64,000 nucleotides of DNA from an uncultured Planctomycetales bacterium. Its GTDB lineage: Bacteria > Omnitrophota > Gorgyraeia > Zapsychrales > GWA2-47-8. Each line of letters starts with the position of its first letter. Position 1 is the stretch's first letter. Shown in pieces: positions 36,001-63,999 of the stretch. A model generated the notes under the pieces. It saw nothing but the letters and a program-made list of their open reading frames with translations. It made no database searches and was not told the origin of the DNA. Location of the stretch: contig CAZCLW010000001.1 in NCBI GenBank assembly GCA_964499685.1, forward strand, positions 119,859 through 183,858, written 5' to 3'. A program made the translations under genes and the position numbers.

Positions 36001-39000
36001 CCCGGTCCCGGAAGAGTTGAACGAGGCGGTGGTTTTGGCAGCAGGGAACGCGGTGGAAACGATCCGGGAGTGTTATGTGAAGGAAATAGGCATTGATATA
36101 AAAAATTGGACCGTGGCTGGTATAGCTGAACCGGTCGAGGCCATCCGTCACATCAACGCACCTGTCCTTTTAGCCGTGGAGTCCGATCAGATAGTCGTTA
36201 ATGCCGCACAGCGCGAAGCTTTTGCGGGATCTGCAGGGAATTCAGTTTCCATCCGTACATATGCCGGGACGCATAACGGGATCTTAACGGGCGAAGACGG
36301 GGAGCGGTTTATTCAAGACGTTGTGGCGTTCTTATCAGAAAGCATACCGGCCGCTCCGGTCACGCGAGAAAGATTCATTGATTTCTTAGATCAGCGCGCT
36401 GTAATTTGGCAAGTCCTTTCAGCTCTGGAAAGCTTCCGCGCGGAGGGGATGATCCGTGGTTACGGTATATCCGGAAGTTTTTCGCGCGGCGAACTCCGTC
36501 TGGATAACGGTCACGACCTGGATATCGCGCTTTTGCTCAAAACCCGTCCGCAATTCCCCGAAAGACTGATCAGATACATTGATCAGGTCAATAAAGATCA
36601 CGGCGATGCCGTACATATTACCCTTGAGGCCTTTGGACCGGCCTATCGCTTCGACCCACAGACCGGATCGCTGCGGTTTGAGATGGTGCGCGGCCGGGAG
36701 ATTGTCCGGTCCCAGATCGGATCCGGTAAATATAAAGGAAATAGATTTATTCAGCTTTCAGATTTGCCCATTACTACGGATGTCCTGTGGCAGTTGTATC
36801 AAACATTGGCCGCCTTGGGCCCGCTGACAACCGATGAGGTCCGGGCGATGCTGGATGTGGAAGCCTGTCCCAACTGTGTCCTTAAATTACTTTCTCCACA
36901 GCGCGCCGTTGAAGTTTACATGCAATTGCAAAAAGATCCGCAGCGTAATATCCGTTTTGTCGAGGGCCATCCTTATTTTAACGTTCAAGCTTTACTGGAA
37001 ATTCTCAGGTCCGATGAGATCGAGCGCATCTTTGTCGAACCGGACCCAACCGCCCCGGGGCGCGGCTGGCATGCCACCTCACGTAAGACCGGCGTCCGGC
37101 TGACCGATATTCCGGACCCGGCCAACGCCTGGGTGGGGGCCGCAGAAGATACATTGGGTGGCTGGTCAAAAATTTTGTTGGATGGCTTAAAAAAGGCAGG
37201 ATTGGCGTCAAAGCAGTCGTTAAGGATCATCGATTTGGGGACCGGTTACGGATATTTCTTGCAGCATTTTGGACGACTTCTCAAGCAGTGGGGCTATCGC
37301 GTTGAGGCTTTGAAGGGCATCGATTATGACAGCGGTTTGGCTAATGCCCATCAAGTTTTGCGCGAGCGGTCTGCGGAATTGCCGTTAATTTTTGCAACCG
37401 CCAGAGTGGCGGAATACAGCGATGACCAGGAATACGATATCGTGTCCATGAACGCCCCGCATACCCAGGTCTTGGAAGAATTTACTTTACGCGCTCTGCA
37501 GTTGGTCAAAACAACCGGAATTATCTGGATCCGGATGGAGCAAACACAAGAAGACTGGTTTGTCTCTGCCATGACGGAATTGAGCTATCATTTCAAGAGA
37601 ATACCTAAATTTGCCGGAATGGAACTTAAGGAAATGGAATTGGTTGTGGGGGACGGTCTCGTGGACAATGAATGGAGTAAAAGTCCCGTCGTTCATTTAG
37701 TCTATTTTACTTCTTCAAGGCCTTCGAATTTGCGCGATGATCCTAACGGCCGGGTGGGGGCCAAAACAAGAAGAGAATGGCAGCCGCACGAGATCCGTCA
37801 GTGGCTTTTGGAAGAACTCGGAGAAGAATTAGGCATTGCTTTTGTGAGGGTTTTGATTGAAGGGTATGAAAAACTTCTTAACGGTGAGAATATTGATAAG
37901 GTCACACTAGCTGGTCTCTCCTATCAGCTGCGCACGGACCATTTTCTGGTGGCGGGATTGGGGAGAGTGATCAAATATCAATTCGAAAATTCACATTATG
38001 AGGCTGTCATCCGTTTATTCGACCGTCTTCCTTTAGCGAAAGGAAATTTTGTTCGTTTTACGGCCGGAGAAAAACGAGTCCGGCCGGAGAAAGATCCCTT
38101 TGCCGCACAAAAAGAGATCCGCCGGCGTTTGGCGTATTTGAGCGGCGCTCCTTGGATCGCTACCCTTGTTGACGAATACGAGATGCTTCCTGACAGCGGC
38201 GGAGACCCCCATACAATCGACCGCCTCGCGCAGACCGCCTATCAGATCAGAAGAGGGCATTTGCATATATCCAGCTTGAAGGATGTTTTGACCAAAGGCT
38301 TCGATGGTGATCCCCGCCAGGTGATAATGTATGCCTTCCCGCGGCTTGCGCTCAAAGAAGAAGGCTTCAAGGTCGTCCTGAAGGTCGATAAAGACCACTT
38401 TTATCAACGGGTTTACCGGATCAGCAAAGACCCGGCGACAGGGAAGGAACTCCGAGAACTGGTCAATGTGGAACGTCAGAGTGCGACATTTTCCTTCCTT
38501 GATACGCCGGGGCCGCATCTACGCCGCACATTTTTGGCGCAGGATGGACGTATCTATCTGTGGCCTAAGAAATTCGTTGGGCCGCTTAGGGTCATTAAGG
38601 TCAATGGCCGGAGCCGGCCGGATCCGGCCTTGACCGGAAGAGCGGTGGATATTTATTATGATGCCGACAATATTCCACGCCGGCTCGTGATCTATGAAAC
38701 ACCCGAGCGGATCAAACTCTTGGATTCCATTCATCTCCACCCTATATTGACCGTCCTGGATTCAGGGAGGACCCAGCTTCACGATGTTTATTATCGAGGC
38801 TATCCTTCCCAAAAGCGCCAAGCCCTGACGAACCATGTTGTCGAAGGAAGATTGAGCCCTCAAGGGACTTTTTCATTCGCGAATGATAATAAAGAGGCTT
38901 CCGGTGCCTGGGCCAGATTTGGGTTGAGGGCCGATCACACTATAGATCCTTCTTATGCCGGCGCGGCATACTCCGCCTATTTTAAGGATGGCTATCCTCT

Positions 39001-42000
39001 GTGGGCCGTTATCTATAAAGAAGGCCGATTGACCGAGGAAGAAGGTGAGCTGCATATTTTCCAGCGCATTCTAAGACAAAAGGACCTGAAAGTGGTCAAA
39101 ATTTTCGGTACAACGATATCCATGGCTACCTGGCCCACGATTTTATCCGAACATGGGCCGATCTTCATTGAAGGCAGTTATGTCGCCGATAAAAAGGGTA
39201 TTATTACTATCGCCGGCAGAAAACTGCGTTCTAGGGAATTGGCTGGCCTTCCTGTACTTATGAAAGCCGATGAGACCGGCCGTTTTTATGCCATGCCGAT
39301 GATCGTTCCCGATAGGATGAGAAAATGGAACCATGCGGTTTTTGCGGCCCAAGTGAAAAATATGATGGCGCAAGAACTGACCCGCGCCCCGGCTGAGCGT
39401 GTGCTCATTGTTCCGGAAGGCATCGATGAAAAAAGCCGGTCATTTTATGAGCAGCTATATCGGAAGGAAAGATTAAGCCAAAAGGGCGTGGTTTCCTTGT
39501 ATGAAGACATTATCTATTTAGGGGATTTTGCCCTGGATCAGATCTTGCGTGGAGTTCCTGAGGACGTCTTGAATTACAGAATTAAGTCGGGGGATAGGGA
39601 AGATACGATCAGGGAATTCATACGTCAGGTCATTCGCCATGGCGTGGTCAGTATCAATCGCGGAACTTTGGGCCCAGCCCATGAACGTCTGGGCCGGGAT
39701 ATCAATCTGCGAGAAAGGCCAAGGATCGCGCTTATGTCGTTTGTTTTGCGGGCAGAGGCCGCGAAGGACCTGATCTGGGCCAGCCATGCTTATCTGGTTT
39801 CAGAAGAGATCGCGCGGGTCCGGGCTGCGCGTCACCTTAAGTTAAATGGAGAAGACTGGGAAGAATTGCATGCGATCGGGTTAAACGTATCGCTGAGGAA
39901 GGCTGTCCAGTTTTATAACATTTATGATGCGCGGTCTAGGAAGGCGACATTTGTTACATATGCCCGCAAGATCATCGAGCGCGATATGCTCAAGGCCCTT
40001 ATCAAAATTTCAAAAGTAAGAAAACGGATGCCTTTGTCATTGCATCATCCTTATGGACCAGAAGCAGAGGGGCGGCAGTGGTCGTTGCTTGATGAGATCG
40101 TGGATGAAAGGACCGGCGTAGTAACAGAAAGCTTTACACCGACGCAAGGTTCCGCCAAAGATGGATTTTATGCAATCATGCAAGGATGGCGCATTCTGGA
40201 CGAACGTACCGCGGAAATGCTTTGGTTGAGATTTTTGCATTATTTTGGTTTTGAAAGATGGACTTATCAGCAGATCGGAAAAAAATTCGGTGTAAGCCAT
40301 GAGACCGTCCGCTTGACCGTTTTATCGCTTTTAGAGGCATTATTCCAAAGACCGGAGATCATCGTCGATATCGGTGCTTTATTCGGCATTCGATTGGATG
40401 CGGATACGCTTGTCTCGCTCTTGGAGCGCTGGAACGGCAACGGTAACGGTAGCGGAGAACATAACGGTGATGATGAAGGTTTGAAAGGAAAACAGGCCAA
40501 TGCCCTGGCCTGGCCGGTCATGGCTTTGGTCCTCTTGTACATTTATCCTTCCCTGATGACCTTGGCAGCGATAGCGCTCCTGGTGGTTTTGTCGGCAGTC
40601 GTTTGGTATAAAAAGCCGCGGCCGCGCGAAGTTGCTTTAACACATTTTCGGAAAAACCTGCGCAGGACAGTCATGTTTAACAATGATACTGCGGGCTATT
40701 CCTTATGTTATCCCACCAATGAGGATTATCTTGGCGCGCAGATCCCTGGTTTACGGCAGATGGTCGAAGCGAAAAAAGCCGCCGGAGAAACGACTGTGGC
40801 CGTTTCCGTGTCCGTGGACCAAACCCTGGGCTTTTTAACGCTTTTTGACCGCGTCTATCTCCTGGATAATACCGCCGCGGTCGTTGAATTGGCTTTTCCG
40901 GCGATGATCAAAATGATCATGGAGGCGCAAAGCCGGGCTGATTTTGCGGCACGGCTTTTCTGGAGGGAATTGAGTCCGGAGCAGTTAAAGGATTTGGAAC
41001 ACGCCCCGTTATCCGCGATCGAAGAATATTTAAGGGATGATGATCGCTTTGCGGATCGCGGCGTAGATCGAATGTCCTATGTGGTGGAGCTTCTTTATGG
41101 GATCGCGACCCGGAAGATGCGCTGGACATTATTGAGAAAGAGGGAATTTGAGGATGCTGTTTATGAGTTGCGCAAGTTGTTCTTCGGCTGGATCAGGACC
41201 GAAGAAGATCTTGATTATGCACCGGAAAAGAGATTATCCGCTTTTGCCGCGGCAACATACTTGAAAGATGAGGATTCTTTCCGGACGCTGAAGACGAAGC
41301 TGGCATCGGGCGCATTGCTCCCTGTGCTCGGCGAAATAGAGGGGGAAGGCTTAAGATATGTCACAAATGATCTGCAGGAGAAAGGATGGACGGCGCATCT
41401 GATCTATATTTCAAACAGTCTGGAATTGGCCGGCCTGTTCGGCAACACAGGGCTTATCGACCACGACATTTTTGCGAAGTTCAGGGCCAATCTCAGGCGT
41501 GCCAGGGATAAAAGGGTCATTGACAGCCGGACATTGATCTCCTGGGGTATCGAAATTGACAGGATGCGTCTGAATACCCTGGAAGAATTCTTTGGCGTTG
41601 ATTTTCCGCTCGACGAGGAGTTTTTGGGAAGTAAATCGCACAAGGCTGTCGTTTATCACGCTGATACCAAGATTTCCCGGAGGCCTTATCGTCCGAAAGC
41701 ACCGGAAGAGCGGTATACGGACGTGGATCAGTACCTTCTCGAGAAAAGGATCGATCCGCGGGTATTAAGACAGTTGGTGAAGATCAACAGGAGCAAACTC
41801 AATGTCTCGATCGTTATCCCGACGACAAAGAGCAGCCGCCACTTAAGAGAGACCGTCGAGCATGTGGCCAAGCAGTTTTCTTTTATACGGCAGCAGCGTC
41901 CGGGCTGGACGGTCGAGTTGATCCTGGTTATCAGCGGCGAAGAATTGGACCGGACGCGGGAAGCGGCTTTAGCTCTTCAAAATGAATTTTTCTTTGCCGG

Positions 42001-45000
42001 AATCAGGGAATTCACCGTTATTGAGTTAGATGTACCGGGAAAGGTCAATGCCATGAATGCCGCTGCTGAATACGCTAAAGGAAAGGATTCTGATGTAATC
42101 GGGTTCATTGATGATGACGTACGGTTCCTGGATGAAAATATGCGTTTAGACCGGACTGTATTCATACGCAGCGTTCAGCATTTGGTCGACACCAAAGAAG
42201 CTTATTTTGTGGGGCCGGACCTTCACATTCTCGCTTCTGAAAATCGCAGCGGCCTGATCACCCGGGCCGAGCAGGCCTACCGCGAACGCCGCGCGCATTT
42301 GGCGCTAAGGTTCCCGGTGGGCGCCGCCATGTTCATGCTGACCAAAACTTTCGCGCCCATGCCTTCTTCAACGATCAGCGATGATATGGCATTGCGTTAT
42401 TATTATGGCGATCCTTATATATTGGAACAGCGCGTTCAAGTCGTGCCCAAAACAGCCGTATACGCCCGCGGCGAAGGAAGTTTCGGGGAGTATTGGAAAC
42501 GCCGTTTCCGCTTGAGCGTCGGGAATAAACAAGCCGAAGACTTCTATAGGGAGAAATACGATGCCATAAGAAAGCTGCGGCCTGCCCTTTCCTCATTTTG
42601 GTTAAGGACCTATCTCTCTGGATTGAATAAGCAGCAAAGAGGTGAGGCCCTGAAAAATCTTTTTGTGCTCCTGATGGCCGGCGGCTGGCTGCCGATCCAC
42701 ATTTATGTTGTTCTGCGTACGCGTTTCAGAAAAATCCTTCATCTTGATCCCTACCGCACCAAATGGCACGCCGTATCTTCATCGACTCAATGGGAAACCT
42801 CTTCAAAGCAAGTGAATGTCCTGGCCTGGCCGGTCATGGCCGGGACGGTGGTCTATCTCTACCCGTCCCTCGTGACGCTTGCCGTGATAGTCGTTCTCAG
42901 TATACCGTTTCTGGTCTATTGGTTCAGAAAAGAAAAAGCCCATCGGCCCCGTCATGAATTGACCGCCAAACAGGAAGAGGCTTGGAGCTATGACCGCGCC
43001 GTCGACTGGGACCTTTACGGTGCCGTCGAGGTCCGCGCCCTTCTCAGACGTCTGGAAGAGGAGAACAAGCTAGGGGAAGTGATCGTCGATGCGGGATCTT
43101 CTTATAGCCCGGTGACCCGCTTATTGAAAGATAAAAAGGTGATTGCCGTTGATGTAGCGGCCATGAAGCCCAGTGAAAATATCCGGTCCGCCGTTGCCAT
43201 ACCTGTTGATTCGCCCACGATCCTTCTGCAAGGAAATATCCAGCAGCCGGAAAAGATCACGGCGATCGAGGAGGCCCGTTCTTTGCTTGGCGCCGCTGAG
43301 CACATTAAAAATCTTGATGAATTATTGGGTACGCGCGTCGATACGGTAGTTCTTTCCCGTATCCTCAATTATGTGGATTACGAGCATGTTATCGCAAAAG
43401 TCATTGCGTGGCTTAAACCGCAGGGCCGCTTGATCGTGGCGAATGATACCCGTCAGGGATCGCGCCGGCGGTTCAGTTCCGGCGGCCTGAAGAACAACCG
43501 GCGGTTCGTGGCCTTTTTGAAGTCGCAGGGCTTTGCGATCGAAGAGCTCGCCCCTGATCCCGTCGGAAAACGTAAAGATGTCATGCTTGTTGCCCGTTAT
43601 GATCCCGGCGAGGTTCTGTTCGGACACCAGGGTCATGCCCAGGGAGAGCATAAGTTGTCTTTGGAAATAAGGACGGCGGATCCCAAGCAGTGGATACGGC
43701 AGCGTTTGGTTCCTGCTTACCTACACGAGGGTTTCAAATTAAGTCTGGCTCTTAACGAGCCTAATTATTTGCGCTTTGCCCTCAACCCTGTTGAGGCGCA
43801 GAGTGATGATGATTTACGCATGTTGGTCCACCTTAAAGCCCAAGAGGATATTGTTTACATGTACGGTGGAAAATTGCGCGACCGGCGCGGCAAACTGAAC
43901 TGGCGGGTGATCGAAAGATACCTCAAGGAAGCCTTGTTCCCGTTCCTGCTTTCCCGCGGATTCAAGATGGTCTATGTTCCGATCGTGCATAAACATGCCA
44001 AAGCGCGCCTTATCAACATGGGCTTCAGGCGCCATGGCGACGGAACGCTAAAATATGAATTGGCGCCGGACCTTCTTCCGGAAGCGAAGGGCTCGCTCAG
44101 CGGAATGGGTTTCGCCGTCGTCCCGCTGTTTGCTGGCATGCCTGACGGCATGGTGAGTTTATTGATCACATTCATGGTGTTTGCTATCGGAATGATGTGG
44201 ATGGTCAGCGGAAACGGGAACGGATACGGCCCGCGGCGGGAACGCCTGCGCAGATTGTTCGTCCAGAAGAACCTTAATCCCAAGACCGCGAAGGGCGACC
44301 GGACCGCGCATGTTTATTCGGTGACAACGGTCAACCCTGCCGAGAAACTGATCTTCCATACGGCGCAATCCGATAAGGGGATCGAGCGGCTGGAGAACAG
44401 CTTTGATATTCTGCACGCGCTGCAGTCGGAAGGAAGGCGCGAAGATCTTCCTCATCTCTTAACGCCCATCCGGCGGTGGGAGCCAACCACGATTGACGGT
44501 AATAATTTGCGGCTGTTTGAGATGGACCGCGACGGCGAACAGCACGGATTTATCACCAACTATGTCTCGGGAGTGAACGGTTATCGGGTCCTGTTCAGGC
44601 ATGTTGTTCAATTTTACGGCGCGCCGACGGCCTGGCAATGGCTGGTCTCCTCGGCCGAAGTCCTGGCTTTCTTGCATAAACGAAGCGACGGTAAACCTTC
44701 CATCGTGCACCGCGACATCAAGCCGGGTAATTATGTCATTGATGTGATCGACGGGAAGATTTCCGTTGTGCTGATCGACTTTGAGTCAGCGGTCGAAGCA
44801 GGAAGACGTTTTAACGACCGGGAAGAGATACATCTTTTCACTGAGGATTTCTCGGAACGGGAACTTGCCAGACGGGGCGTGCCTCTCGTATCTTTTGATC
44901 AGACCGCGCGTCACGCGTTTGATATTTTCGGCTGGGGGATGACAACCTACTATTGGATGACAGGGGACTTTCCGTACGCCGCCGCCAAAAGTATGAACAT

Positions 45001-48000
45001 TGCCACCTTGTTCAGGGCTTGGAAAAGAAGATTATTGCGGGCCGGGGCTTCTGCGTCTACTCCTGTCATCCTCAGGGCCATGATGCCGTTCCGCGATATG
45101 CGTTACCGCTCCATGGACCATGTGGTAAGGGACCTGCATAAACTCGGCCAGGCGCAGGGATTAATCGTCCCTAACGGCGATAACGGCAAAGAACATAGAC
45201 CGCTGGGTTTTGCGCCGAGAGGGTTCTTGTCATGGCTCTACTCCATTCTTCCCGACGGGGCTCTCGGATTTCCGTTCCGCGTGGCGTTGGCGGGGATCGT
45301 GATCCCGATCTGGGAAGGTATCAAAGATTTTGCGTTGCCGTCCTTAATCCTTGTCTTAAGGCGCAAGGTGAGTTTGTTCGATGTCAAGGGCCTTATACGG
45401 ATCATGCACCGCTTTAGGGCCATGCATGAGGACCAATTTTTTGTTGCCAACAGCCGTGTTGCCTTCCATAAAAATGATTTTACCGAGGAAGAACAACAAA
45501 GAATCAACAGGGCCATCCGGTCCTTCTCACGGATCTTTATCCTGCCCTATTTAGTATGGCTGAGGTGGATGCGCGGCTGGATGGTCTTTGTCGGCGTGAT
45601 CAACGCCTACCTGGGCGTGGTCGCTCTGGCGATAGGAAGGCCCATATTTCCTTATCCCTTCGCTCTTTTTGCAACGGCCTTTATTCTGGTCCTGCCGATC
45701 ATCCTGGCGACGGTCCATTCCGTCGTTCTTCACATTTCTTACAACCTTTCCGTCTTGCTTTTAGACGAAATAATCCCGCTGGCCATGGCCAGTCCGCTTA
45801 AAGAAAAACGCGGAAAATTGATCAGAAAAGTCATAGCCGACTTAAAAAAGAAGGGCGTTAAACCATTGGCCACGGCGGTTACAGAAGAGATCCGGAGGAG
45901 GGCCGCTGAAAATTCTAAGATAGAAGAGTTGACATTCGATCAAGTCTGGAGCACGGCCGAGGAATTAGGTATTGAATTTGAGACACGGTCCATCGATAAA
46001 AAGGAACGTGTTAAACAGATCAAGCGATTGGCGGAAGATTTTCTCGCCAAGAATAAGCGCAAGCCAACGCTTCACGAAATGGTCGATCTGCTTAACACGG
46101 ACAACAAAGGTACGGATGTCACGTATCAAAATTTGTTCAAGTGGTTTGAGGGCCATGATGTCGATTATCAGCGCTTGGGCATCGTGAAAGTCGAGCGCAG
46201 CATGGAAAATTCCCTAAGCCAGATCGTCGAAGCCGCCCGCGCGCTCCAAGAGGAACGGTCGAGCAATGAGATCACGATGGCGGAGATCAGGAAAAAAATG
46301 GGTGTTAAGAATGCGGCTTTCTCAAATCGTCTCAGAAGATTGAGGGAAGCCGGCAAGGATGCCCAGGCCGAATTAATTGCGGCCGGGTTTGTGTTCAAGC
46401 AACCGCCGCCCAAGCGGGTCAAGCCGCCGAAGGCCCAAAGGGAAAAGAAGACGCCGGTCATGAAAGTCCGCAAGGTCCGGATCCCCAAGGAAAAGCGTCA
46501 AGGTGTGGGGAAGGGCCAGCCTCTTCACGTGCGCAAATTGATCCGCCGGGGAGAATTTGAAGAGGCTGAGAGGATATTGAACGAATGGGATGAAAATAAG
46601 ATGGGATCGGTCAAGACCAACGCGAAATTACGTCAGGAGCTTGAGGCGCAGAAGATCGCTGGTCCTGTCCCTGTCCATGTTCCTAAAAAACGGGAACGGG
46701 TTGTCCGCGTCAAAAAGCCCGGCGTGGGGCGGGGGAACATCGGCCGTATCCGCAAAATGATCCGTCTGGGAGAATTTAACGACGCGGAAGCCATGTTAAA
46801 CGATTGGGAGGCAAAGCAATTGCTGCCGGCGTCGCAGATTGCCGGATTCCGAGAGAGCCTAGCAGCCGGAAAAATAAAAGCGGAACAGGAAAACGCTGAG
46901 CGAGAAAGATTGGAGGCCGAGCGTGTTTTAGAAATTGAACGCGCGAGAAGGGCTGAAAAAGAAAGATTGGCGGCCGAGATCGCAGAAGCCGAATTCAAAA
47001 TGAAAGCTGACTCGGAAAGACTTCAAGACGCCGCGGAGCAATTAAGGACGGCCCAGGAAGAAAGATTGAATTTGGCCAGAGAGCAATTAAGCAGGCAGGA
47101 GGAAGCTTTGCGGGCCGGGTCGGGCAATTTGCGCCGGCAGCTGAACGATCATCGTGCGGCCTTGGAGGATCTCGAAAGAAGATTGGAAGAACAGGGCCAG
47201 CGTTTACAAAGGAGAGTGCAGGCCCTGCAAAGAGAAGAAGAAAGGAAACAGAAAGAGATCGTCCAGCTTATCGAGCGGATCAATGAGCATTTAACCCAAC
47301 ATATTTTCTTTGAGGCGGGAGCGCGCAGGGCCTTAACGCGGCTCAAAGAACTTTTGCCGGGCGACGATGAGCGCTTGGCAGTCCTTGAAAGCAAATTAAA
47401 CGAAAGAGCGGTATTGGAGCGGGACAACGCCATTATCCGGGCCATGTGGGATGCAATTGAAAAGCAGGAGTTCGATCCGAATGCGGCCGGTAACGCCATT
47501 GAAAAGCTGAGGAAAGGTTTGAGCCGGGACCGCCCTGAAATTGTCCGCATCCGCGAAGCCTTGGTCGTAAGAGACCGAATGGAGAGGGGAATTTACGAGC
47601 AGACCGTTAAGGTCAAACCTATCGGAAAAGCTGTGCCGCTCAAGAAGGCTGATGAAAAATCTGCACAAGCACCGACCATCGAGCAATTGATCGAGAAGGG
47701 CGATTATGGCACCGCCCGCGCAGTCCTGGGCGGTCTATCCGAAGAAGATCGGCTGCAATGGGAAGAAAGAATAAATATAGAAGAAGGGTGGCTCGAGATC
47801 GTCAATTTGATCGCTGCCATCCGACGGGAGATCGTGCATTTGCCCGATACAGGTGACATCACCGAAGAATTGAATGCTCTTAACCGCAGTATCGACCGGC
47901 TCAAAGAACTGGAAGAGAAACATCCCTATTCCAAAGACCGGGAAAAAATGGCCCACATGGAATTGAGGGAAAAGGTGCAGGCCATCCAGGAAAAATGGAA

Positions 48001-51000
48001 TAAACGTAAGGCCGATATCGAACGCCTCCGCGCGTTGATGGACAAGGAATCAAAGAAGAAAAAAGATTCATGGGTTAAGCCCAAAGGGAAACCGTTGTAC
48101 GCCATTGCGTTCCCGTTGTACGGCCTTGCGGCTTTAGACCCTGCACAGATGTTCTCGGCCGACATGCAGTCCATTTTCGGAATTTTATTTGCGGTTTTTG
48201 CTGCTTTTACGGTATTTGCCGTGTCGGGAGGAAAAGGGAGGAAGAACGAAAATATTGATGAACGACTCACTATTTTATTAAAAGCAGCCGGTTCTTTCAT
48301 CAAGCATGCGCCCGACGGCCGTGTGGAAATATGGGCAGCCAGCCGCGATTGGTTCCTGGAGCAGTGGGGGCGTGATACTTTTATCGCTTTGCCAGGACTT
48401 CTTTTGGTCACGGGCAGATTTGAGGAAGCAAAGAATGTCATCGCCGGTTTTGCCCGGTATGAAAATAAGGGACTTCTCCCTAATCGTATTTTACCGGGCG
48501 ATCAAATTATGGAATATAACAGTGCGGACGCGCCCCTATGGTTTATGCAGGCAGTCAAAGAATACCTTAATTACACAAGCGATTGGGATTTCCTCATGGA
48601 AAATGACGGTCTGATTTTACGGACGATGCGCAACATCATTTTTCATTATAAAAACGGAACAGATTATCGGCGGCATGGAAAAGAGCGGCGTATAACCATG
48701 GATGAAATTGATGGATTGATCATCAGTCCGTCCCAAGCCACCTGGATGGATGCCGATCCGAACGGACAAGATCGTCCCGTCACACCGCGCGACGGGAAAG
48801 CGGTCGAGATCAACGCGCTCTGGTATCTCAATCTGAGGTTTATGGTCGAGGTTGGAATAAAATTCGGTGATATCAACAGTGCGGCAGAGCATCAAAAGCT
48901 TGCCGATAAAGTCAGAAGATCATTCAATGAAAAATTTTGGAATCCGGCCTTTGAGCATGATCCGTCAGCGACTCCTCTGTTCGATGTTATAGAGGGGGAC
49001 CCGCATAAAGGCGCCATCCGTCCGAACATGCTTTTTGCCGTCGGCCGCACAAGCGACCTTCTTTCCATTGAGCGCCGGAAAGCGGTTGTTGATGTGGCCA
49101 CCCAAGAACTGCTCACGCCTTACGGCTTGCGCACGTTATCGCCGCGCGATTCGCATTACCATGACGTCTACGACACGACAGCGCCCGTTGAGATCAAAGA
49201 CCAGGCTTATCATCAGGGGACTGTCTGGCCGTGGCTCATCGGTATTTATATCGACAGTCTGGCGCGTGTCCGAAAACTTGAGCGGGAAGAAGTTCGAAGA
49301 TTGCTTGACCCTCTCCTTGAGTTCCTGATGAGCAGCCCGGCAGGGTCTTTACCGGAAGTTTTTGACGGCGGCGATATCAGCGGCATTCAGCCGCAAAAAC
49401 CCGGCGGGACCTCTTCGCAGGGTTGGAGCGTGGCCGAGGTCCTGCGTGTCGCGGGAGAGTATGGCCTTGCTGGTCTCGGGCCAGGCCGGACCCGCGATGA
49501 ACAAGAAGCGGCTGAGGTCGACAAGCGGTTGCTCGTCGATGAACTTGTAGGATTTTGGAAGAATTTGACCCCGGGACAGATGTTCGCTTTGATGAAAAAG
49601 GACTTGCCGGGAGAAGAAATCAATAAAAGGTCCAGAGCCTTGATCAAGGAGACGTGGGGGGCCGAGGACAGCAATGAATATGGCCCGGAATTGTTCGGCT
49701 ACAGGATGACCCCGGACCAGCTCAATGATATTTTTGACAAAACGGGAATAAGGGCCGGAGATACGGTCCTTGAAATCGGGCCGGGATGTTCGCCCTTGAG
49801 CATGATCGCCGCTTTACGCGGGGCCCATGTGACGGTCATTGAAGCATTTGAATTGTTTGCGATCCGCCAGCATGTCATGTTTGAACATAACCGCACGGCG
49901 ATCGAGCTTGCGGGCGGAAGCTTCGACTATATGGTAGGCGGCATCTTTAGAGAAGATGTGCAGGCTAAACTGGCGGATAGAAAATTCGATCACATTATTA
50001 TTTTAAATGTCCTGAACCCTCGTGACGTAACCGATCCGCGGTTATCGGCGATAGCGGGATCGTTAGGAGAAACAGACCTCACATCACCGCATTTTGGGAT
50101 CCTTGACGCACAGGAAGTGGGTAAAGTGTTAAAAGAGATTGCACGTAGAAAGGCCCCTTCCGCAGGATCCATACTGTTCAATGTCAATACTTCCTACTCT
50201 TTCAGCATGTCCCGGATGTTAAACCTGATGACGGAATTTAAGGGTTGGCTAACGGCTGAGGGCGTTAAATTATCTTCGGTTGCCGGATTGACCTGGACAC
50301 CCCTCGGCGAACACACGGCTGTAGTTTGGCCGACCGAAGGTATAAATGAGAATAAAAATGCAGGACAAATACTTCCAGGTATCAATTTATCATGGGGTTT
50401 CCTTGCCCTGGATCCAATGGGGATGTTCAAGCCGGGGATGGAGAAGTTCTTCGGCACCGTCTTTTTATTGGGCCTGATTTTCCTGGGATGGTTTATCTTT
50501 CATTGGTGGAAAAACTACCCATTAAGAAGAATACGAAATATAGTCCGTCAATACCGTCTCGGGGCGTTTGATCTTCCTGTGGCGTTGGCATACTTGGCGA
50601 AAGACAGTGCGTATTTTGACATAACTCTTTTCCATGAAGGCCCGGAAACCAAGATCAAGGCTTTGATAAGGAATATTTGGAAACAATCGACGGGCGAGCC
50701 GTTGCCTTCTTGGGTAGAGATACGGAAATCCACAACTGCGTTGACGCCCAATCAGATCAGGGAATATGTAAAAAAGGTAGAGTTTCAAAAACTCGCCTTT
50801 GGTCTACATAATATGGCCTTCATTGTGAGCTTGAGGGCCAAGCAGGCGGATACGATTGAGTATTTAAGAAGGCTTTCGTATGGGATGACCTTGAGGGACG
50901 CCCGCAATTCCATTGCCTTCAAGGCTGAGGTCCTTGTAGACTCTTTGGGCCGAACCGGGCAGATCCGGTGGGTGGACGGCCGGATCACCACGTACCGTTG

Positions 51001-53044: not shown

Positions 53045-53046
53045 TT

Positions 53047-54493: not shown

Positions 54494-55002
54494 TACCATT
54501 CCATGCCTTCGTAGGCACAATAGCCTTTGATTTTAATGCCTCCGGAATTATTTCCCATCATGGCGACTCCGGCAACCACCGGCGCTCCCCAAGTCCAGTC
54601 GAAGCTGGTTACACCGTAGGGTGCGGTATCACCCATTACGCATGTGGATGAAATTCCCAGGTCGCGCGTGTTGCGTCTGGCATGCAGGACCCAACCGAAA
54701 GAGGTCTGACTGCCGGCCCAGGAGGCGTCATAATCGAAATGACTGTTGGGGCTGTTGGCCGGGTTTTCCGCGGCCCATACAATTTGACGGCAGTTGCTCC
54801 ATCCGGTAATGCCGCCGGTGCTTCCCAGATAACAGCGTTCAATGGCCGCCCGCAAACTGCTCAGCATACTGATTGCCTCCACAGCGCGGGTGCGCTCCAC
54901 CATGCGGAAAAATTTAGGCAAAGCAATGCTGGCCAAGACGCCCACAATGATAATGACGATAATGACTTCCAGAAGAGTAAAAGCTTTTTGTTTTTTAAGC
55001 AT
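54493..55002 (-). CDS. Prepilin-type N-terminal methylation-domain protein (type IV pilin / T2SS pseudopilin-like), paralog 1, 169 aa.
   Basis: N-terminus MLKKQKAFTLLEVIIVIIIVGVLA has the class-III signal/prepilin motif (FTLLE with Glu+5). A Cys pair brackets the C-terminal region. The C-terminal motif is GYCAYEGMEW. Its stop overlaps the next gene's start (TGATG). Confidence 0.8.
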   Translation of the reverse strand: MLKKQKAFTLLEVIIVIIIVGVLASIALPKFFRMVERTRAVEAISMLSSLRAAIERCYLGSTGGITGWSNCRQIVWAAENPANSPNSHFDYDASWAGSQTSFGWVLHARRNTRDLGISSTCVMGDTAPYGVTSFDWTWGAPVVAGVAMMGNNSGGIKIKGYCAYEGMEW

Positions 55003-55077
55003 ATATTTACCTTTATTTAAATTATAACATTAACTTATTTCGCGCTATTACGAAAATAAAAAAATCGATAGATGGTC

Positions 55078-55106
55078 TTGCATGCTAAAAATCACAATGT
55101 TATAAT
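55078..55106 (+). promoter_or_regulatory. Sigma-70-type promoter candidate for the + strand operon: -35 TTGCAT (55078-55083), 17-nt spacer, -10 TATAAT (55101-55106).
   Basis: Read directly in the sequence: ...cttgcatgctaaaaatcacaatgttataattcc.... An AAGGAG ribosome-binding site (RBS) lies at 55141-55146, before the GTG start at 55156. Confidence 0.4.
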
Positions 55107-57048: not shown

Positions 57049-57142
57049 GCATTGAAGAACAAAATATTCATGTTGGGTGTCCTGGTGCTGGCCGCACTCT
57101 TCGGCGGGATTTTTTTACCCCTCGATCAAAGCGAGGATTTTA

Positions 57143-57774
57143 TGGCCGAGCGTAATAAAATGGTGGAAGAGCAGATCATCCGTCGGGGCATTGATGATGA
57201 AAACGTCATCAAGGCCTTGCGCAAGGTGGAACGCCATCTTTTCGTCCCGCCAAATGACCGGCCCCTGGCCTACCGCGACCATCCCTTGCCTATCGGGTTC
57301 AATCAAACCATTTCCCAACCTTATATTGTCGCGTACATGTCGCAGGCCGCGCATTTGAAAAAAGATGACAAAGTTCTGGAGATCGGAACGGGCTCAGGGT
57401 ATCAGGCTGCGGTCCTCGCCGAAATCGTCAGGGAAGTCTATACGATCGAACTGATTGAAGGGTTGGCCAAAAGCGCCCAAGAGCGGCTGGCCGAACTTGG
57501 TTACACAAACGTTTTTGTGCGTCACGGCGACGGTTATCAGGGCTGGCCCGAACATGCGCCTTATGATGTCATCATCGTCACGGCCGCACCCGAAACCATT
57601 CCACCCAAACTAATCGAACAGCTTAAACTCGACGGACGCATGGTCGTCCCCATCGGTTCCGTCTATCAGGAGCTTTATTTGATCACCAAAACACCGACCG
57701 GTGTCGTTCAGGAAGCACTGCTTCCGGTGAGATTCGTGCCTATGGTGCCCGATAATGGGGAAAATAATTTGTAA
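57143..57774 (+). CDS. pcm: Protein-L-isoaspartate O-methyltransferase. The track ORF begins at TTG 57052 and would add a hydrophobic 30-aa N-terminal extension. The ATG at 57143 gives the canonical ~210 aa.
   Basis: MAERNKMVEEQIIRRGI.D..V..A...V.RHLFVP, motif I VLEIGTGSGYQAAVLAEIV and PYDVIIVTAA...P..L..QL..DGRMVVPIG are the hallmark PCMT blocks. Confidence 0.8.
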
Positions 57775-57840
57775 CTCAGCAGTGAGATCTGCGTTTAAAG
57801 TATAGCGACGGACATTTCGTTTGAAGAAAGGACTCCCCTT

Positions 57841-59295
57841 ATGATAAGAAAATACATCCTTGCAGTTACTGTTGTTTTGGCATTGAGCGTACCGCAAACC
57901 GGCTTTTCCCAGGAACCTCTCACAGGCAAGACTCCTCCCGGCGTGATCAAGAGCACGGTCCAGGACCAGAAAAATGTGGCCGTGACCGTTTACAACAATA
58001 ATCTCGCCTTGATCAAGGACACGCGCGAGATCGATCTTCCCAACGGACAGGCGGAGCTGAGGTTCATGGATGTGGCCGCGCACATCATGCCGGTCACGGT
58101 CCTTATCAAATCGCTCAATGACCCGGATAAATTCTCCGTGCTGGAGCAAAATTATGAATACGACCTGATCAGCCCGCGGAAACTTATGGACAAGTATGTG
58201 GGCAAAAAGATCAAGATCATCGATTACAACGCGTATCAGGATAAGAAAGAAATATTGGAAGCCACTTTGCTCAGCAATAACGAAGGCGAGATCTACCGGA
58301 TCAATGATGAGATCTTCATCGGCCACGCCGGATACAAGGTCCTGCCGGAAATTCCCGCCAATCTCATCGCCAAGCCGACGTTGACCTGGCTTTACGCGAA
58401 TTCGGCCAAAAGGCCGCACCGGCTTGAGGTTTCTTATTTGACCAATAATCTGAACTGGAAGGCCGATTATGTCATGTCGGTCAATGACAGCGACACGCTG
58501 GCTGATCTTTCCGGCTGGGTGACCTTGGATAACAAAAGCGGGGCGACCTACACCGACGCGAAATTGAAACTTGTCGCCGGAGAGGTCAATCGGGTAGCCG
58601 ACTCTATGTCGAGAGCCAAGGCCGGAAGAATGGAATTTGCCATGGCGGCAGAAGCCCCGGGCTTTGTCGAAAAATCTTTTTTCGAATATCACATCTATGA
58701 CCTGCAGCGGCCGACCACCATCAAGGACAATCAGACCAAACAGGTGAGTTTGCTGGAGGCAGGCGGCGTCAAAGTGGAAAAAGAAATGACCGTGCGCGGC
58801 AATCAATATTACTATTATTCCTCTTACGCGGCCCAGAAAATGAAAACGCCCGTCGAGGTATATATCAAATTCAAGAACAGCCAGGACAATAACGTCGGGA
58901 TGCCGCTGCCGGCCGGCACCGTGCGCTTGTATAAAGCGGATTCCGACAAAAGCCTGCAGTTTATCGGCGAGGATGCGATCGAACACACACCCAAGGATGA
59001 AGAGGTAAAACTCAGGATCGGCGAGGCCTTCGATGTGGTCTCGGAGCGCGTGCAGACGGACTTCAAGATCGTGGCCTCCAATGTGTATGAATCAGCGTGG
59101 GAGATCTCGCTGCGCAACCATAAAAAAGAAGCGGTCACGGTCGGCGTGGTCGAGCCTTTGACCGCGGACTGGCAGATCCTGGAATCAACCCACTCTTATA
59201 ATAAGGAGAACGCGTTCACCATCCGCTTTGACGTCCCCGTTGCCCCCGACGAAGAAGTGAAGGTCAAATACCGTGCGCGGGTAAGGACACATTAA
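57841..59295 (+). CDS. Secreted protein, possibly of the DUF4139 (mucoidy-inhibitor MuiA-like) family (484 aa).
   Basis: Signal peptide MIRKYILAVTVVLALSVPQTGFSQ. Internal LSGWVTLDNKSGATYTDAKLKLVAGEVNRV resembles the conserved core of DUF4139 proteins, recalled from memory and not verified. Confidence 0.5.
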   Translation: MIRKYILAVTVVLALSVPQTGFSQEPLTGKTPPGVIKSTVQDQKNVAVTVYNNNLALIKDTREIDLPNGQAELRFMDVAAHIMPVTVLIKSLNDPDKFSVLEQNYEYDLISPRKLMDKYVGKKIKIIDYNAYQDKKEILEATLLSNNEGEIYRINDEIFIGHAGYKVLPEIPANLIAKPTLTWLYANSAKRPHRLEVSYLTNNLNWKADYVMSVNDSDTLADLSGWVTLDNKSGATYTDAKLKLVAGEVNRVADSMSRAKAGRMEFAMAAEAPGFVEKSFFEYHIYDLQRPTTIKDNQTKQVSLLEAGGVKVEKEMTVRGNQYYYYSSYAAQKMKTPVEVYIKFKNSQDNNVGMPLPAGTVRLYKADSDKSLQFIGEDAIEHTPKDEEVKLRIGEAFDVVSERVQTDFKIVASNVYESAWEISLRNHKKEAVTVGVVEPLTADWQILESTHSYNKENAFTIRFDVPVAPDEEVKVKYRARVRTH

Positions 59296-60452: not shown

Positions 60453-60510
60453 TTACCACCTGCCTCGCCCAAGTGCGGGGCTTGACTAGCCGCAGAAGTG
60501 TTTTGGAGAA

Positions 60511-60546
60511 GGGGGTCAATACGCAACGTTTGGCCCCCTTTTCATT
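60511..60546 (+). terminator. Rho-independent terminator after the small secreted protein gene.
   Basis: GC-rich stem GGGGGTCA (60511-60518) pairs with TGGCCCCC (60531-60538), including one G-U pair, across a 12-nt loop. A T-tract TTTTCATTT follows. Confidence 0.55.
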
Positions 60547-60608
60547 TATCCTGCCTTGAAAAGCCCCTCTATATATGCTATCTTTTTAACAGTTTTTAAA
60601 CTAATACT

Positions 60609-63600
60609 ATGTTTAGACACCTGCATAAAAGGCTTAAAAAAGGCCCGTTCCGGGCTTTATTTTTTATTTTTATATTTTCTTTCCTTAACTTGAACGTGCT
60701 TCCGGCGCAGGCTCAAACTTTGCCGATTTTGCCTCAACCCGGAAGCATGCTTCCGGTCAGCCCCGGTTTTGCCCCGCCTCACCTTAAGGGCATCAAAGTT
60801 TTCAGCGATAACCCGCTCCACTTTGATTTTTTCGTGCACCGCGGCGATACAGGTCTTTCGCAGGCCGAGATCCGCCAGGAATCCTTGAAACTGATCAAAT
60901 ATTTTTTGGCCACGCTCACCATCCCCGAGGATGAGCTTTGGGTCAACCTTTCTCCCTATGAAGAAAACCGCATTATCCCGGAACGTTTCGGCCAGACCGA
61001 AATGGGCCGCGATCTTTTGGCCCAGGATTATCTGCTCAAACAGCTGACCGCTTCTTTGATGTATCCGGAAGACGACCTGGGAAAAGAATTTTGGGGCCGC
61101 GTCTATAAGCGTGCGTATGAACTGTACGGCACAACGGAGATCCCCATCAATACTTTCAATAAAGTCTGGATCGTCCCTGACAAGGCCGTGGTCTTTGAGG
61201 ACGGCGATACGGCCTATGTCGTCGAAAGTCATTTGAAAGTCATGTTGGAAGAAGATTACGTTTCCATCAAGAATAATTTAAGCGACAAGCAGCGCGGCAC
61301 CGACCGGCTCAAAGAAGACGATGTGCGTATTTTGAGCAACGTCTCTTCGGGGATCGTCCGGGAGGTCCTTATCCCTGAGATCGAAAAAGAGATCAACGAG
61401 GGAAGGAACTTCTCCGGTTTGCGGCAGATCTATCATTCCATGATCCTGGCGGCCTGGTTCAAGCAGAACCTGAAGCAGTCGCTTCTGGGGCAAGTGTATG
61501 TCGACCAAAAGAAGACCAAAGGCATCGACACGGAAAATCCGCGCGATAAAGAGTTCATTTATGAGCAGTATCTGGAGGCGTTCCGCCGGGGCGTTTACAA
61601 TTTCATCAAGGAGGATTATGACCCGGTGACCCAGGAAGCCGTTGCGCGGCGTTACGTTTCGGGCGGCTTTCAGGGCGATGCTTTGTTCAGCCCGCAGGTG
61701 CTCAAGGCCGTCAATCGTGACCGTGTTTTTCAGCCTGACGGGCGGATAAACCCGGCGATGCTTTCAGTCAGGGCCCAGCAGAACATCGTGGCCCTGCCGC
61801 AGACCGCCGCCGAAGGCGACCTTTTCCGGGTGGAAACTAATTTTTATGAATTCGGCCGGCAGGCCGATCGACAGGAAGTCCGCCGTATCGCCCGAGGCAG
61901 TCAAGCCAACCCTGCCATGCTCGGTAAAAAACTGAGCAGCTTCCCGCAAGGAATAACACATCCGCGTTTAACGGAATTCAGGGAATTGGCCGCGGCCTTA
62001 TCCGAAAGGACTCTTCTCAGGGCAAGGTCTCTCCCTGAGGTCGATCAGGATAAAAGGAACTTGAGTTATGAATTGAGTTATGTCCTGTTGACTTCCGCGG
62101 CCTTAGGTGACCGTCAAACCTTTGAAGAAACGATGCGAAAAATGGAGGCGATCGTCGGTCAACCTTATACGGATGCCAATGTCCGCAGCAATGATCACAA
62201 TGCTTGGATGATGTGGATGCTCGGGCGCATGATGCTCGCCGAGGCCATGATCTCAGGGTCGAAGTCTCAAAAGATGAATGACCTTCAGGCCAAGATGGAT
62301 GAATTTTCACCATGGGCCTACAAAGGCCATCCCATGACGATCTGGGGAGAGGGCTACCGTCTCATGTGGCATGCGGTCGAGAACTCGGCTGAATATGACC
62401 GCCTCAAGTCTTCGATCGGAGAAAGATTGGGCGCCATGCCGGAGCGGAATCCCGATGAGGTCGATAATAAAGCCTGGGCCCACGTTGAGACATTCTATGC
62501 CTCTGCTTTAGCGGGTGACTTAGATACATATGACGGATTGGAAGAAGATACATTGCGTCTGGTCAGGTCCATGCGGCGGGTGGAAGGGTTCCAGGCCTGG
62601 GCGCTTGGTCAAATGCGCCTGGCAGCGGCTTTGATGAACGACCGGGTTTTTATCGAAAATACCGCGGAATTTGCAAAAGATATCATCGATCGTCCCGATA
62701 TACAGCCGCTCGACAAAGTAATGGCCCTGAACATGACCATTGCGGCGGATGCCGTGTCTGTCAATCCCGCGATGTTGGCCCAATCGCCTTCTGAAACGCC
62801 GGATGACTGGGGAAGCGAACGGGGCAATCTGGCTAAGAAATTGGGCGCCATTCCACACCGTGAGGTCAAAGGAAGACCGGAAAATTCTTACAGCGTGAAC
62901 CGGGCGGTGCGATTGGCTTTTGAAGCGAACAAGACTGAAGAAATACCTGAGGAGATCCGGACTGCTTTAATGGAATATTTGGACGAAGAGGAAGTTGCCA
63001 TGGCAGTCGGGGATACAGGTCTTACAGCGAAAATATTGCAGGCCAAGGCGACTGACGCCGAGACACGGCTCATCCTCGTCGAGGATATACAGGCCAATTC
63101 GCCGGCCATTGTCATCCGTGATGCCGATAATTTTCAGGTAGCGCATATCGGCCCTTCCCGGCAATCGCTCTATCTGGGTAAAAGATTCGTCGAGCAGCTC
63201 CATCAATCAAATTCCGCGGAGGACAAGGAGATCTTGAACGCGTTTTTGACCCGTGAACTGGTAGCCCTGGTCAAGTTCAATGAAGTTTACACCGGGAACA
63301 ATTATGACGACGCGATCCGCCAAGCCGAGGATATAGCCGAGAATTTTGAGAAGATGCTTTTATCCCGACGCTTAGGGAGTGCAGACCGTTTGGACGGCCG
63401 TTTGCGGCAGGCGGTGAATGAGTTCCTGGAAGTCGGCCGGCCGCAATTCCATTTTGGTATCCGTAGCGGCCTGCAGTTGATGGCCGGTCGTCACAATATC
63501 AGTCTTACATCCGACCCGCTGGATAATCTTGCCGTTCACAAGGAGTTTATCGAGAAGGCCTTTAATTTGCCAGTCTCTCAGCAAACAACGCTTCTGCGGA

Positions 63601-63999
63601 ATTACCGCAGCTTTATTGACACTAACCGGGTTTTTATCGACCTGTTCTTTTCTCCGGATGAACGGCAGGGATTGGAGCAGCTTAGGCCGCGTATCGGTTA
63701 TTATCAGGGAGACCACTTGACCTCCTTCCCTGCGCAGGAATTAATGGCCTTTGACCATATCCGCCGGACCCGGCCGCAAATGGTTGAACAAGAAATTGAA
63801 CTGGCCAAAAGAGATATCCCGCCGATCACGGCGGAACTTCCCTCTGAGGAGCTCTTCCGTCGTTTGCGGGAGCATTCGCAGAATATTTTGTCCGGGCTGG
63901 CCATCCATCCGACCCTCCGGAACCAGCTCACGCAGGAAGTAGAAAGCCATCTGTACAAAGAGCTTATTAGCCGTCCCTCGACGGACAGACGTATTGTGT
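60609..63999 (+). CDS. Large secreted protein, 3'-truncated by the window edge (>=1130 aa). Unknown function; possibly a second giant gene.
   Basis: ATG at 60609. I translated the frame by hand and found no stop through nt 63999. The N-terminus MFRHLHKRLKKGPFRALFFIFIFSFLNLNVLPAQAQT is a signal peptide (AQA|QT). It is absent from the ORF track only because it has no stop in the window. The minus-strand ORFs 60657..61232, 61278..61508 etc. are shadows. Confidence 0.75.
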   Translation, partial: MFRHLHKRLKKGPFRALFFIFIFSFLNLNVLPAQAQTLPILPQPGSMLPVSPGFAPPHLKGIKVFSDNPLHFDFFVHRGDTGLSQAEIRQESLKLIKYFLATLTIPEDELWVNLSPYEENRIIPERFGQTEMGRDLLAQDYLLKQLTASLMYPEDDLGKEFWGRVYKRAYELYGTTEIPINTFNKVWIVPDKAVVFEDGDTAYVVESHLKVMLEEDYVSIKNNLSDKQRGTDRLKEDDVRILSNVSSGIVREVLIPEIEKEINEGRNFSGLRQIYHSMILAAWFKQNLKQSLLGQVYVDQKKTKGIDTENPRDKEFIYEQYLEAFRRGVYNFIKEDYDPVTQEAVARRYVSGGFQGDALFSPQVLKAVNRDRVFQPDGRINPAMLSVRAQQNIVALPQTAAEGDLFRVETNFYEFGRQADRQEVRRIARGSQANPAMLGKKLSSFPQGITHPRLTEFRELAAALSERTLLRARSLPEVDQDKRNLSYELSYVLLTSAALGDRQTFEETMRKMEAIVGQPYTDANVRSNDHNAWMMWMLGRMMLAEAMISGSKSQKMNDLQAKMDEFSPWAYKGHPMTIWGEGYRLMWHAVENSAEYDRLKSSIGERLGAMPERNPDEVDNKAWAHVETFYASALAGDLDTYDGLEEDTLRLVRSMRRVEGFQAWALGQMRLAAALMNDRVFIENTAEFAKDIIDRPDIQPLDKVMALNMTIAADAVSVNPAMLAQSPSETPDDWGSERGNLAKKLGAIPHREVKGRPENSYSVNRAVRLAFEANKTEEIPEEIRTALMEYLDEEEVAMAVGDTGLTAKILQAKATDAETRLILVEDIQANSPAIVIRDADNFQVAHIGPSRQSLYLGKRFVEQLHQSNSAEDKEILNAFLTRELVALVKFNEVYTGNNYDDAIRQAEDIAENFEKMLLSRRLGSADRLDGRLRQAVNEFLEVGRPQFHFGIRSGLQLMAGRHNISLTSDPLDNLAVHKEFIEKAFNLPVSQQTTLLRNYRSFIDTNRVFIDLFFSPDERQGLEQLRPRIGYYQGDHLTSFPAQELMAFDHIRRTRPQMVEQEIELAKRDIPPITAELPSEELFRRLREHSQNILSGLAIHPTLRNQLTQEVESHLYKELISRPSTDRRIV

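Follow-up and report, generated by a model that had tools for sequence, protein, structure and literature searches.

The open reading frame and its signal peptide

The window analysed here, a stretch of 64,000 nucleotides from contig CAZCLW010000001.1 (assembly GCA_964499685.1, assigned to the Omnitrophota), ends within a large plus-strand open reading frame (ORF) whose product belongs to a very large and so far unannotated family of modular, predicted exported proteins in Omnitrophota. The frame begins at ATG 60609 and stays free of stops to the window boundary, giving a translation of 1130 codons, while the other two forward frames contain 11 and 21 stops in the final 1 kb of the window; by our own estimate, the chance of so many stop-free codons in DNA of 51% GC content is about (61/64)^1130, or roughly 1e-24. 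An in-frame TAA at 60597-60599, four codons 5′ of ATG 60609, makes this ATG the earliest possible start. Homology (80% identity to the relative P0001 over amino acids (aa) 36-355, E 4.5e-169) confirms the coding assignment, and the ORF is a real gene.

The N-terminus of the window ORF carries a Sec-type signal peptide, composed of a basic n-region (MFRHLHKRLKKG), a hydrophobic core at aa 14-31, which is also the sole transmembrane (TM)-like segment within the 1130 aa, and the motif AQA↓Q (arrow, predicted cleavage point) at aa 33-36. An identical layout was found in 151 of the 151 relatives that could be scored, with the junction consensus [AVS]-[YFQ]-A↓Q-[ST]. A TM-like segment occurs in the variable region of about one relative in four, and the visible part of the window ORF has none there. 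Comparison of the ORF with Pfam and with PDB sequences returned 0 matches each, and comparison with NCBIfam returned noise only. Given the Sec-type signal peptide and the absence of known domains, the product is predicted to be, most likely, exported.

These results bear out much of the original prediction, which had described an open frame of at least 1130 aa from ATG 60609, missing from the ORF track, with a classical signal peptide, an alpha-rich sequence and no recognisable domains. The frame contains zero stops over its 1130 codons, and it went unlisted because the ORF lister leaves out ORFs that run off the window; the signal peptide and the lack of domain matches hold as given above, and the alpha-rich character is correct for aa 436-1130 in the AlphaFold2 (AF2) model. 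Two minus-strand ORFs of 191 and 458 aa (Table 1) run antisense to homology-supported plus-strand genes, the former to the N-terminal domain of the window ORF and the latter to an upstream DUF4139 gene, and are most likely shadow ORFs.

Two conserved ends and the modules between them

The signal peptide is followed by a conserved N-terminal domain (aa 36-355), which, together with a C-terminal domain described below, we term a bookend domain. When 1.84 billion cluster representatives (clusters at 50% identity) were searched exhaustively by HMMER with aa 36-355 as query, 7,977 of them matched at E<=1e-3, of which 6,269 reached E<=1e-30. A word-indexed protein search likewise returned more than 4,493 proteins, which match the first 28-44% of the query only, at 46-72% identity, the closest database match being 72% identical to the window ORF. 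In genome contigs, a scan with the N-terminal part yielded only relatives of 49-56% identity. Among the best 150 matches, the N-terminal domain forms a single uninterrupted stretch in nearly all cases and starts within the first 80 residues, with three exceptions, in proteins of 420-5,312 aa. Over 28 members it contains 61 invariant columns, and its pattern reads LP.PG.M ... WVNLSPYE ... NTFNKVWIVP ... RKYFSGG. All sources that name an organism are Omnitrophota or Omnitrophica, save two third-party metagenome-assembled genomes labelled Planctomycetales, and some members come from unclassified vent-metagenome bins. The domain has no relative in Pfam, NCBIfam or PDB, and its predicted fold, modelled as alpha+beta with long helices, has no structural match; both AF2 models are of moderate confidence, with a predicted local distance difference test (pLDDT) score of 68-69.

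Many family members also carry the C-terminal bookend, a conserved domain of about 55 aa (GGIDLNP..LDLQIKRDGxGxPLP...I.GFxPVIINIxPVxNLPLLLG), after which comes an acidic tail of 10-80 aa. This domain was found in 84 of 120 and in 135 of 186 retrieved members, and some of the proteins without it are apparently cut by contig ends; P0122, for instance, stops inside a transaldolase domain. The coupling of the two ends was tested independently in 71 metagenomic loci fetched by the C-terminal domain alone, for which a single C-terminal sequence served as the seed, the alignment being too variable for that purpose. Of the 37 C-domain ORFs in this sample with a 5′ end within the locus, 32 open with the N-terminal domain; the five exceptions comprise two split genes with an N-domain ORF immediately 5′ and three ORFs on contigs of 1-2 kb. 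Complete genes in the same sample encode 738-3,242 aa (median 1,745), and complete members overall span 0.7-5.3 thousand residues (kaa). The C-terminal domain has no Pfam or PDB relative: 24 copies of it matched 0 Pfam families, and NCBIfam scans of four complete relatives found nothing in their C-terminal parts. It is absent from every frame of the 64-kb window, the ORF being cut before the expected point. An exact 41-mer taken at the window end had no match among metagenome contigs.

Two relatives, P0001 (1,533 aa, locus L001) and P0121 (2,291 aa, locus L009), occupy the orthologous position. The genes upstream of the window ORF encode a coiled-coil/TPR protein, a 244-aa membrane protein, a protein-L-isoaspartate O-methyltransferase (PCMT), a DUF4139 protein and two small proteins; all six are 46-76% identical to their counterparts in L001, and for three the identity to the L009 genes is 32-62%. 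The N-terminal ~400 aa are common to all three family genes. Beyond this part, the window ORF matches P0001 only to aa 427, and it shares with P0121 aa 8-402 (62% identity) and aa 719-1126 (28%), while P0001 and P0121 have in common only the N-terminal part and a receiver plus C-terminal domain. The middles differ, with a PGI domain in P0001, a different set plus modules B and C and a carboxyltransferase in P0121, and modules A, B and C in the window ORF; both P0001 and P0121 carry the C-terminal domain. Different middles between shared ends at orthologous loci imply that modules are exchanged within a fixed frame. Thus, the two bookend domains sit on one polypeptide, and the modules between them are swapped even at orthologous loci.

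The visible middle of the window ORF is composed of a linker mini-module and modules A, B and C (Table 1). The mini-module, with pLDDT below 50 over aa 345-396, is conserved with P0001 as far as the end of the shared region. No sequence relatives were found for module A, whose predicted toroid-like shape is typical of glycan-active enzymes such as glycoside hydrolase family 76, a likeness that lies in the predicted shape. Module B recurs in P0003, P0002 and P0012 at 31-36% identity, as well as in P0121 and P0138, whereas module C matches P0121 only. Together, aa 719-1126 are collinear with P0121 aa 922-1333, and the final residues, PSTDRRIV, align with PKRDIRISD at the start of the P0121 carboxyltransferase domain (E 7.6e-29 to oxaloacetate decarboxylase alpha, 2nx9_A), which is followed in P0121 by the receiver and C-terminal domains. 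We infer from this alignment that the missing 3′ part would continue as in P0121, with carboxyltransferase, receiver and C-terminal domains, and collinearity with this 2,291-aa protein predicts a total of about 2,000 aa, so that the product is probably large yet not giant. Database searches with aa 440-1130 and with aa 720-1130 returned no matches; since P0003 and P0121 do match pairwise, a limit of the word index is the probable cause.

Table 1. Positions of the window ORF, its parts and neighbouring features in the 64,000-nt window
Feature	Position	Strand	Remarks
Giant ORF	41..53044	+	Complete, 17,667 aa; TTG start
Four tandem prepilin-type genes	53047-55002	-	N-terminal methylation motif FTLLE...; directly 3′ of giant ORF
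PCMT gene	57052..57774	+	E 3.9e-62; three genes 5′ of window ORF
ORF antisense to DUF4139 gene	57610..58986	-	458 aa; most likely a shadow ORF
Terminator-like hairpin, then U-run	60506..60543	+	3′ of a 106-aa gene; folding free energy (dG) -25.2 kcal/mol, z = -5.6
Sigma-70-like promoter match	60556..60584	+	TTGAAA-17-TATCTT, TG before second hexamer; 25 nt 5′ of ATG; consensus match only, weak
Window ORF	60609..63998	+	1130 codons; 3′ end cut by window boundary; homology-supported
Sec-type signal peptide, aa 1-35	60609..60713	+	Predicted signal peptidase I site AQA↓Q; layout in 151/151 relatives
ORF antisense to N-terminal domain	60657..61232	-	191 aa; most likely a shadow ORF
Conserved N-terminal bookend domain, aa 36-355	60714..61673	+	Alpha+beta (predicted); ends RRYVSGG
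Linker mini-module, aa 356-438	61674..61922	+	Bounded by two NPAML, at 61749-61763 and 61908-61922
Module A, aa ~448-718	61950..62762	+	14 helices, (alpha/alpha)6-toroid-like (AF2 model)
Third NPAML, aa 719-723	62763..62777	+	Opens predicted disordered linker aa 719-761, pLDDT 25-46
Module B, aa ~739-940	62823..63428	+	Alpha/beta (predicted), pLDDT up to 90; recurs in family
Module C, aa 941-1130	63429..63998	+	Helical (predicted); collinear with P0121 aa ~1130-1333

Family genes are frequently adjacent, about one locus in six carrying two or more. L005 contains three in a row, and in L002 and L006 a C-terminal domain lies immediately 5′ of the next N-terminal domain. In L022 (6722-10300) and L055 (6580-10230), the N- and C-terminal domains of a family gene lie on two separate ORFs, the gene being either a pseudogene with a frameshift or wrongly assembled. 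Such split genes on metagenomic contigs lend some substance to the view that the window ORF itself is a pseudogene or an assembly chimera that yields no functional product. We put the chance of this close to negligible, as the ORF comprises 1130 uninterrupted codons collinear with P0121 and P0001, its N-terminal domain is highly conserved and its linker motifs, described in the following section, are under peptide-level selection.

Linker motifs and a proposed exported carrier

The pentapeptide NPAML occurs three times in the window ORF (aa 381-385, 434-438 and 719-723), where composition predicts ~6e-4 occurrences. The sites at aa 381 and 719 fall within segments of pLDDT below 50, and the site at aa 434 lies just before such a segment (aa 436-447). 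All three copies of NPAML are encoded by different synonymous codons, which indicates constraint on the peptide rather than on the DNA and rules out a DNA-level repeat or recombination site. Relatives carry either [DN]xAM[LMT] (e.g., DAAMM or DSAML) or SSP[IV], a motif of a second type; a scan of 4-mers in the variable regions, made without bias, placed SSPI, SSPV, DAAM and DSAM at 18-38x expectation, and the enrichment was repeated at 22-37x in the C-domain-anchored sample. Internal translation starts at the motif methionine were considered and rejected, as Shine-Dalgarno-like sequences precede only 3 of 14 sites and SSP[IV] contains no methionine.

The motifs coincide with module boundaries. 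In P0001, they flank the PGI domain (motifs at 440 and 1073, domain at 492-1047) and the receiver domain (motifs at 1300 and 1438, domain at 1312-1431), the C-terminal domain following from 1455. In P0121, they flank the receiver domain and, in addition, mark the onset of homology to the window ORF: the third NPAML aligns with DPAMM at P0121 position 922, where homology resumes. More generally, 28.6% of homology-block ends are no more than 25 aa away from a motif, compared with 10.7% of random positions, a 2.7x excess. Taken together, predicted disordered linkers lie between the modules and contain the peptide-level selected motifs [DN]xAM[LMT] or SSP[IV].

The modules carried by the family include PGI, PGM, UDPGP, pfkB, carboxyltransferase, receiver, HATPase_c and GGDEF/EAL domains. 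Behind the same signal peptide and N-terminal domain, P0138 (4553 aa) contains enoyl-CoA hydratase, AMP-binding, KR and short-chain dehydrogenase domains, and P0122 (2803 aa) contains PGM and transaldolase. We propose, with restrained confidence that it is the probable reading, that these proteins are exported carriers, in which a fixed Sec signal, N-terminal domain and C-terminal domain enclose variable modules, the two ends would provide shared handles and the linkers may undergo processing. Under this proposal, the Sec system would carry the protein across the inner membrane with cleavage of the signal peptide, and both bookends would serve as common handles for a shared later step, be it surface anchoring, secretion or delivery. 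The linker motifs, as a hypothesis, may act as processing or hinge sites that release modules in a polyprotein-like manner. Since many modules are cytoplasmic-type enzymes or signalling domains, their delivery to a host or prey cell of these host-dependent nanobacteria, or their exposure to material from such a cell, would be the most coherent outcome.

A stronger version of this proposal would be a phylum-wide polyprotein delivery system, in which the two ends co-operate in exporting enzymes into or onto host or prey cells and the motifs are cleavage sites, the alternation of Asp and Asn at the first motif position pointing to Asx-specific or succinimide-type cleavage. Such alternation would suit Asx-directed or succinimide-type chemistry as an idea, but we regard the full version as rather improbable.

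Much of the same architecture would be expected of a static surface scaffold, that is, a protein that is exported, remains intact and is anchored by one or both bookends, with the motifs acting as flexible or modified (e.g., glycosylated) spacers. The Ser/Pro-rich SSP[IV] linkers resemble O-glycosylated spacers, the glycan-enzyme-like shape predicted for module A would fit a surface role, and no protease was found among the neighbouring ORFs. A five-residue consensus with Asp/Asn alternation over thousands of paralogues is, however, rare in plain spacers, and receiver, kinase and sugar-phosphate enzyme domains have no obvious substrates at the surface, leaving a static scaffold tenable on the whole but unlikely.

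The cytoplasmic character of most cargo is also what one would expect if the N-terminal segment stayed uncleaved and the protein, never exported, formed a membrane-tethered metabolic or signalling scaffold inside the cell. Consistent with this, the PGI domain of P0092 reaches 630 bits against the Pfam PGI model, a score expected of an active enzyme. Six basic residues nevertheless precede the hydrophobic core and none occur in the ~20 residues after it, an asymmetry that, by the positive-inside rule, places the protein body outside, and the signal-peptidase site [AVS]-x-A↓Q is kept family-wide. A cytoplasmic tether is, accordingly, clearly improbable in our view.

Several points weigh against the exported-carrier proposal. 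Substrates from the cytoplasm are required by the receiver, histidine-kinase, PGI, PGM, UGPase and carboxyltransferase modules, which fit poorly with the periplasm or the surface of the producing cell; this argues either for action in another cell or against export, and export itself is predicted from sequence alone. Neither motif type is present in 67 of 170 members, and the motifs are therefore not universal. No protease or secretion partner was found in the giant ORF located upstream in the window (a CAAX protease aside) or among 539 neighbouring ORFs at family loci. As the 3′ end of the window ORF lies outside the window, its C-terminal domain and total length are predicted from relatives, and the lack of a known fold for the N-terminal domain could stem from model error.

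Gene neighbourhood and comparison with known systems

The window ORF begins 7.5 kb 3′ of a giant ORF, with ten ORFs between them, four of which are the opposite-strand prepilin-type genes. Most of the length of the giant ORF is unannotated, and its Pfam matches comprise an Rce1-like CAAX protease, adenylate kinase/AAA_17, PTS-HPr, APH kinase, HEAT repeats, methyltransferases, alpha/beta hydrolase, sigma-70 region 4, GT2, protein kinase and GDE_C; no C39, S8 or SecA domain was detected by Pfam at E<=1e-5. It is an Omnitrophota giant of the "multi-enzyme" type. No bookend domains were found in it, and a search for the linker motifs gave none beyond one chance match. A resemblance of module B to the ...AH.G....HE[LI] repeats of the giant protein was considered and dropped, as an iterated hidden Markov model (HMM) of module B missed that protein. 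Among the four prepilin-type genes, three overlap a neighbour, and three share a conserved C-terminal tail, ...C.Y[ED]GMEW.

Between the 106-aa gene and the window ORF lies a strong terminator-like hairpin, equalled in RNA folding by 0 of 200 shuffles, which would mark the 5′ boundary of the transcription unit of the ORF. A consensus terminator scan overlooked it because its loop is 10 nt (read by eye) and the scan is limited to 8 nt. In both relatives, the syntenic gene block is preceded by MutS/MutL rather than by a giant gene, and synteny is lost 5′ of a 384-aa gene (window ~53000-55100 versus L001 1-3968 and L009 1771-6303). Because MutS/MutL stands there in the relatives, the giant-plus-pilin block looks like a variable insertion or rearrangement, and the proximity of the giant ORF is not a conserved functional linkage.

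These observations bear on the remaining claims of the original prediction, namely that the ORF likely encodes another large or giant extracellular protein, in tandem with the megaprotein locus, a view that, taken further, would have the two co-expressed and working together. Both genes lie on the same strand of the same window, the family and the giant ORF draw on a common pool of cytoplasmic-type enzyme and signalling modules, and secretion and pilus genes are reported to cluster beside giant genes (bioRxiv 10.1101/2023.11.21.568195). The product is large, but a giant size is not supported: complete members found through the C-terminal domain have 738-3242 aa, the longest of the best 150 N-domain matches has 5312 aa (0.4-5.3 kaa in all), and the syntenic orthologues have only 1533 and 2291 aa. 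Nor is the tandem arrangement supported, given the ten intervening ORFs (four antisense), the terminator-like hairpin, the MutS/MutL synteny of relatives and the lack of common domains or motifs. The link between the window ORF and the megaprotein gene is not conserved, and the view of a second giant partner is largely refuted and, to us, highly improbable.

Clustering of the 539 neighbouring ORFs at metagenomic family loci revealed no dedicated partner gene: only an ABC transporter (8 loci) and an acyl-AMP ligase (7 loci) recurred, and immunity genes were not seen among the neighbours. The PCMT upstream of the window ORF, whose linker motifs start with Asn or Asp, has an N-terminal hydrophobic segment (MKNKIFMLGVLVLAALFGGIFLPL) and may be exported or membrane-anchored; the gene is present in L001 and absent from L009.

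Among known systems, the family is closest in phylum and content to the giant proteins of Omnitrophota ("Archaeovorins"): in both, a signal peptide or membrane targeting precedes a mosaic of cytoplasmic type that is mostly unannotated. The published giants are proteins of at least 10 kaa (West-Roberts et al. 2023, bioRxiv 10.1101/2023.11.21.568195; Nielsen & Lui 2026, bioRxiv 10.64898/2026.06.07.730766) and contain the same Pfam families as the bookend cargo (Nielsen & Lui 2026). Shared module types are PGM, starch synthase, receiver, HATPase_c, methyltransferase, GNAT, HAD and NUDIX. However, bookend proteins are ten to a hundred times shorter, and the window ORF, of which 1130 aa are visible, has no TM helix after the signal peptide and no SecA-DEAD, C39, S8, dockerin or TSP3 domain by Pfam. 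The bookend family is defined by its N- and C-terminal domains and linker motifs, and the giant ORF of the window is without them. West-Roberts 2023, Seymour 2023 and Nielsen & Lui 2026 make no mention of a conserved end-domain family or of linker motifs.

The nearest working analogy, and an analogy only, is provided by the MARTX toxins, which the family resembles in outline. In MARTX (RtxA), conserved N- and C-terminal regions flank a strain-variable effector mosaic, and short linkers are processing sites. MARTX toxins, however, use type I secretion without a Sec signal and contain glycine-rich repeats and an internal cysteine protease, whereas the bookend family has a Sec signal and no such match in Pfam or NCBIfam. 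Cargo of the type IX secretion system (T9SS) is similar in that a genome encodes many paralogues, which combine a Sec signal at the N-terminus and a small conserved domain at the extreme C-terminus with unrelated cargo, but T9SS belongs to Bacteroidota and its cargo has no conserved N-terminal domain. Neither its sorting-domain models (TIGR04183, Por_Secre_tail) nor any other model matched the C-terminal parts of the family (NCBIfam, four complete relatives; Pfam, 24 C-terminal domains). TpsA/CdiA, Rhs and LXG proteins likewise combine a conserved N-terminal domain with variable, recombining modules, and their genes are often in tandem. The bookend N-terminal domain is, in contrast, predicted to be alpha+beta with long helices rather than beta-helical like TPS, and it matches nothing in Pfam or by structure; moreover, the variable part is internal, not terminal as in polymorphic toxins, and the cargo resembles metabolic or regulatory proteins, not toxins. 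Compared with giant Archaeovorins, T9SS cargo, MARTX toxins and TpsA proteins, the family lacks defining features of each.

The oddest trait of Omnitrophota, which are uncultivated nanobacteria dependent on a host, is the possession of very long proteins in which enzymes of cytoplasmic type stand behind export signals. Our analysis corrects the reading of this locus from a second giant gene in a giant-gene cluster to an ordinary-sized member of a separate, very large family, and points to a mid-sized sister class of the giants, with ~8,000 clusters at 50% identity and no Pfam or NCBIfam model. The two conserved end domains could be used as HMMs to catalogue the full cargo repertoire of a genome, the module exchange visible at orthologous loci makes the family tractable, and the linker motifs give explicit predictions of processing sites that can be checked in existing metaproteomes. 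If true, the delivery and cleavage reading would provide the first defined processing code for multi-enzyme proteins in this phylum.

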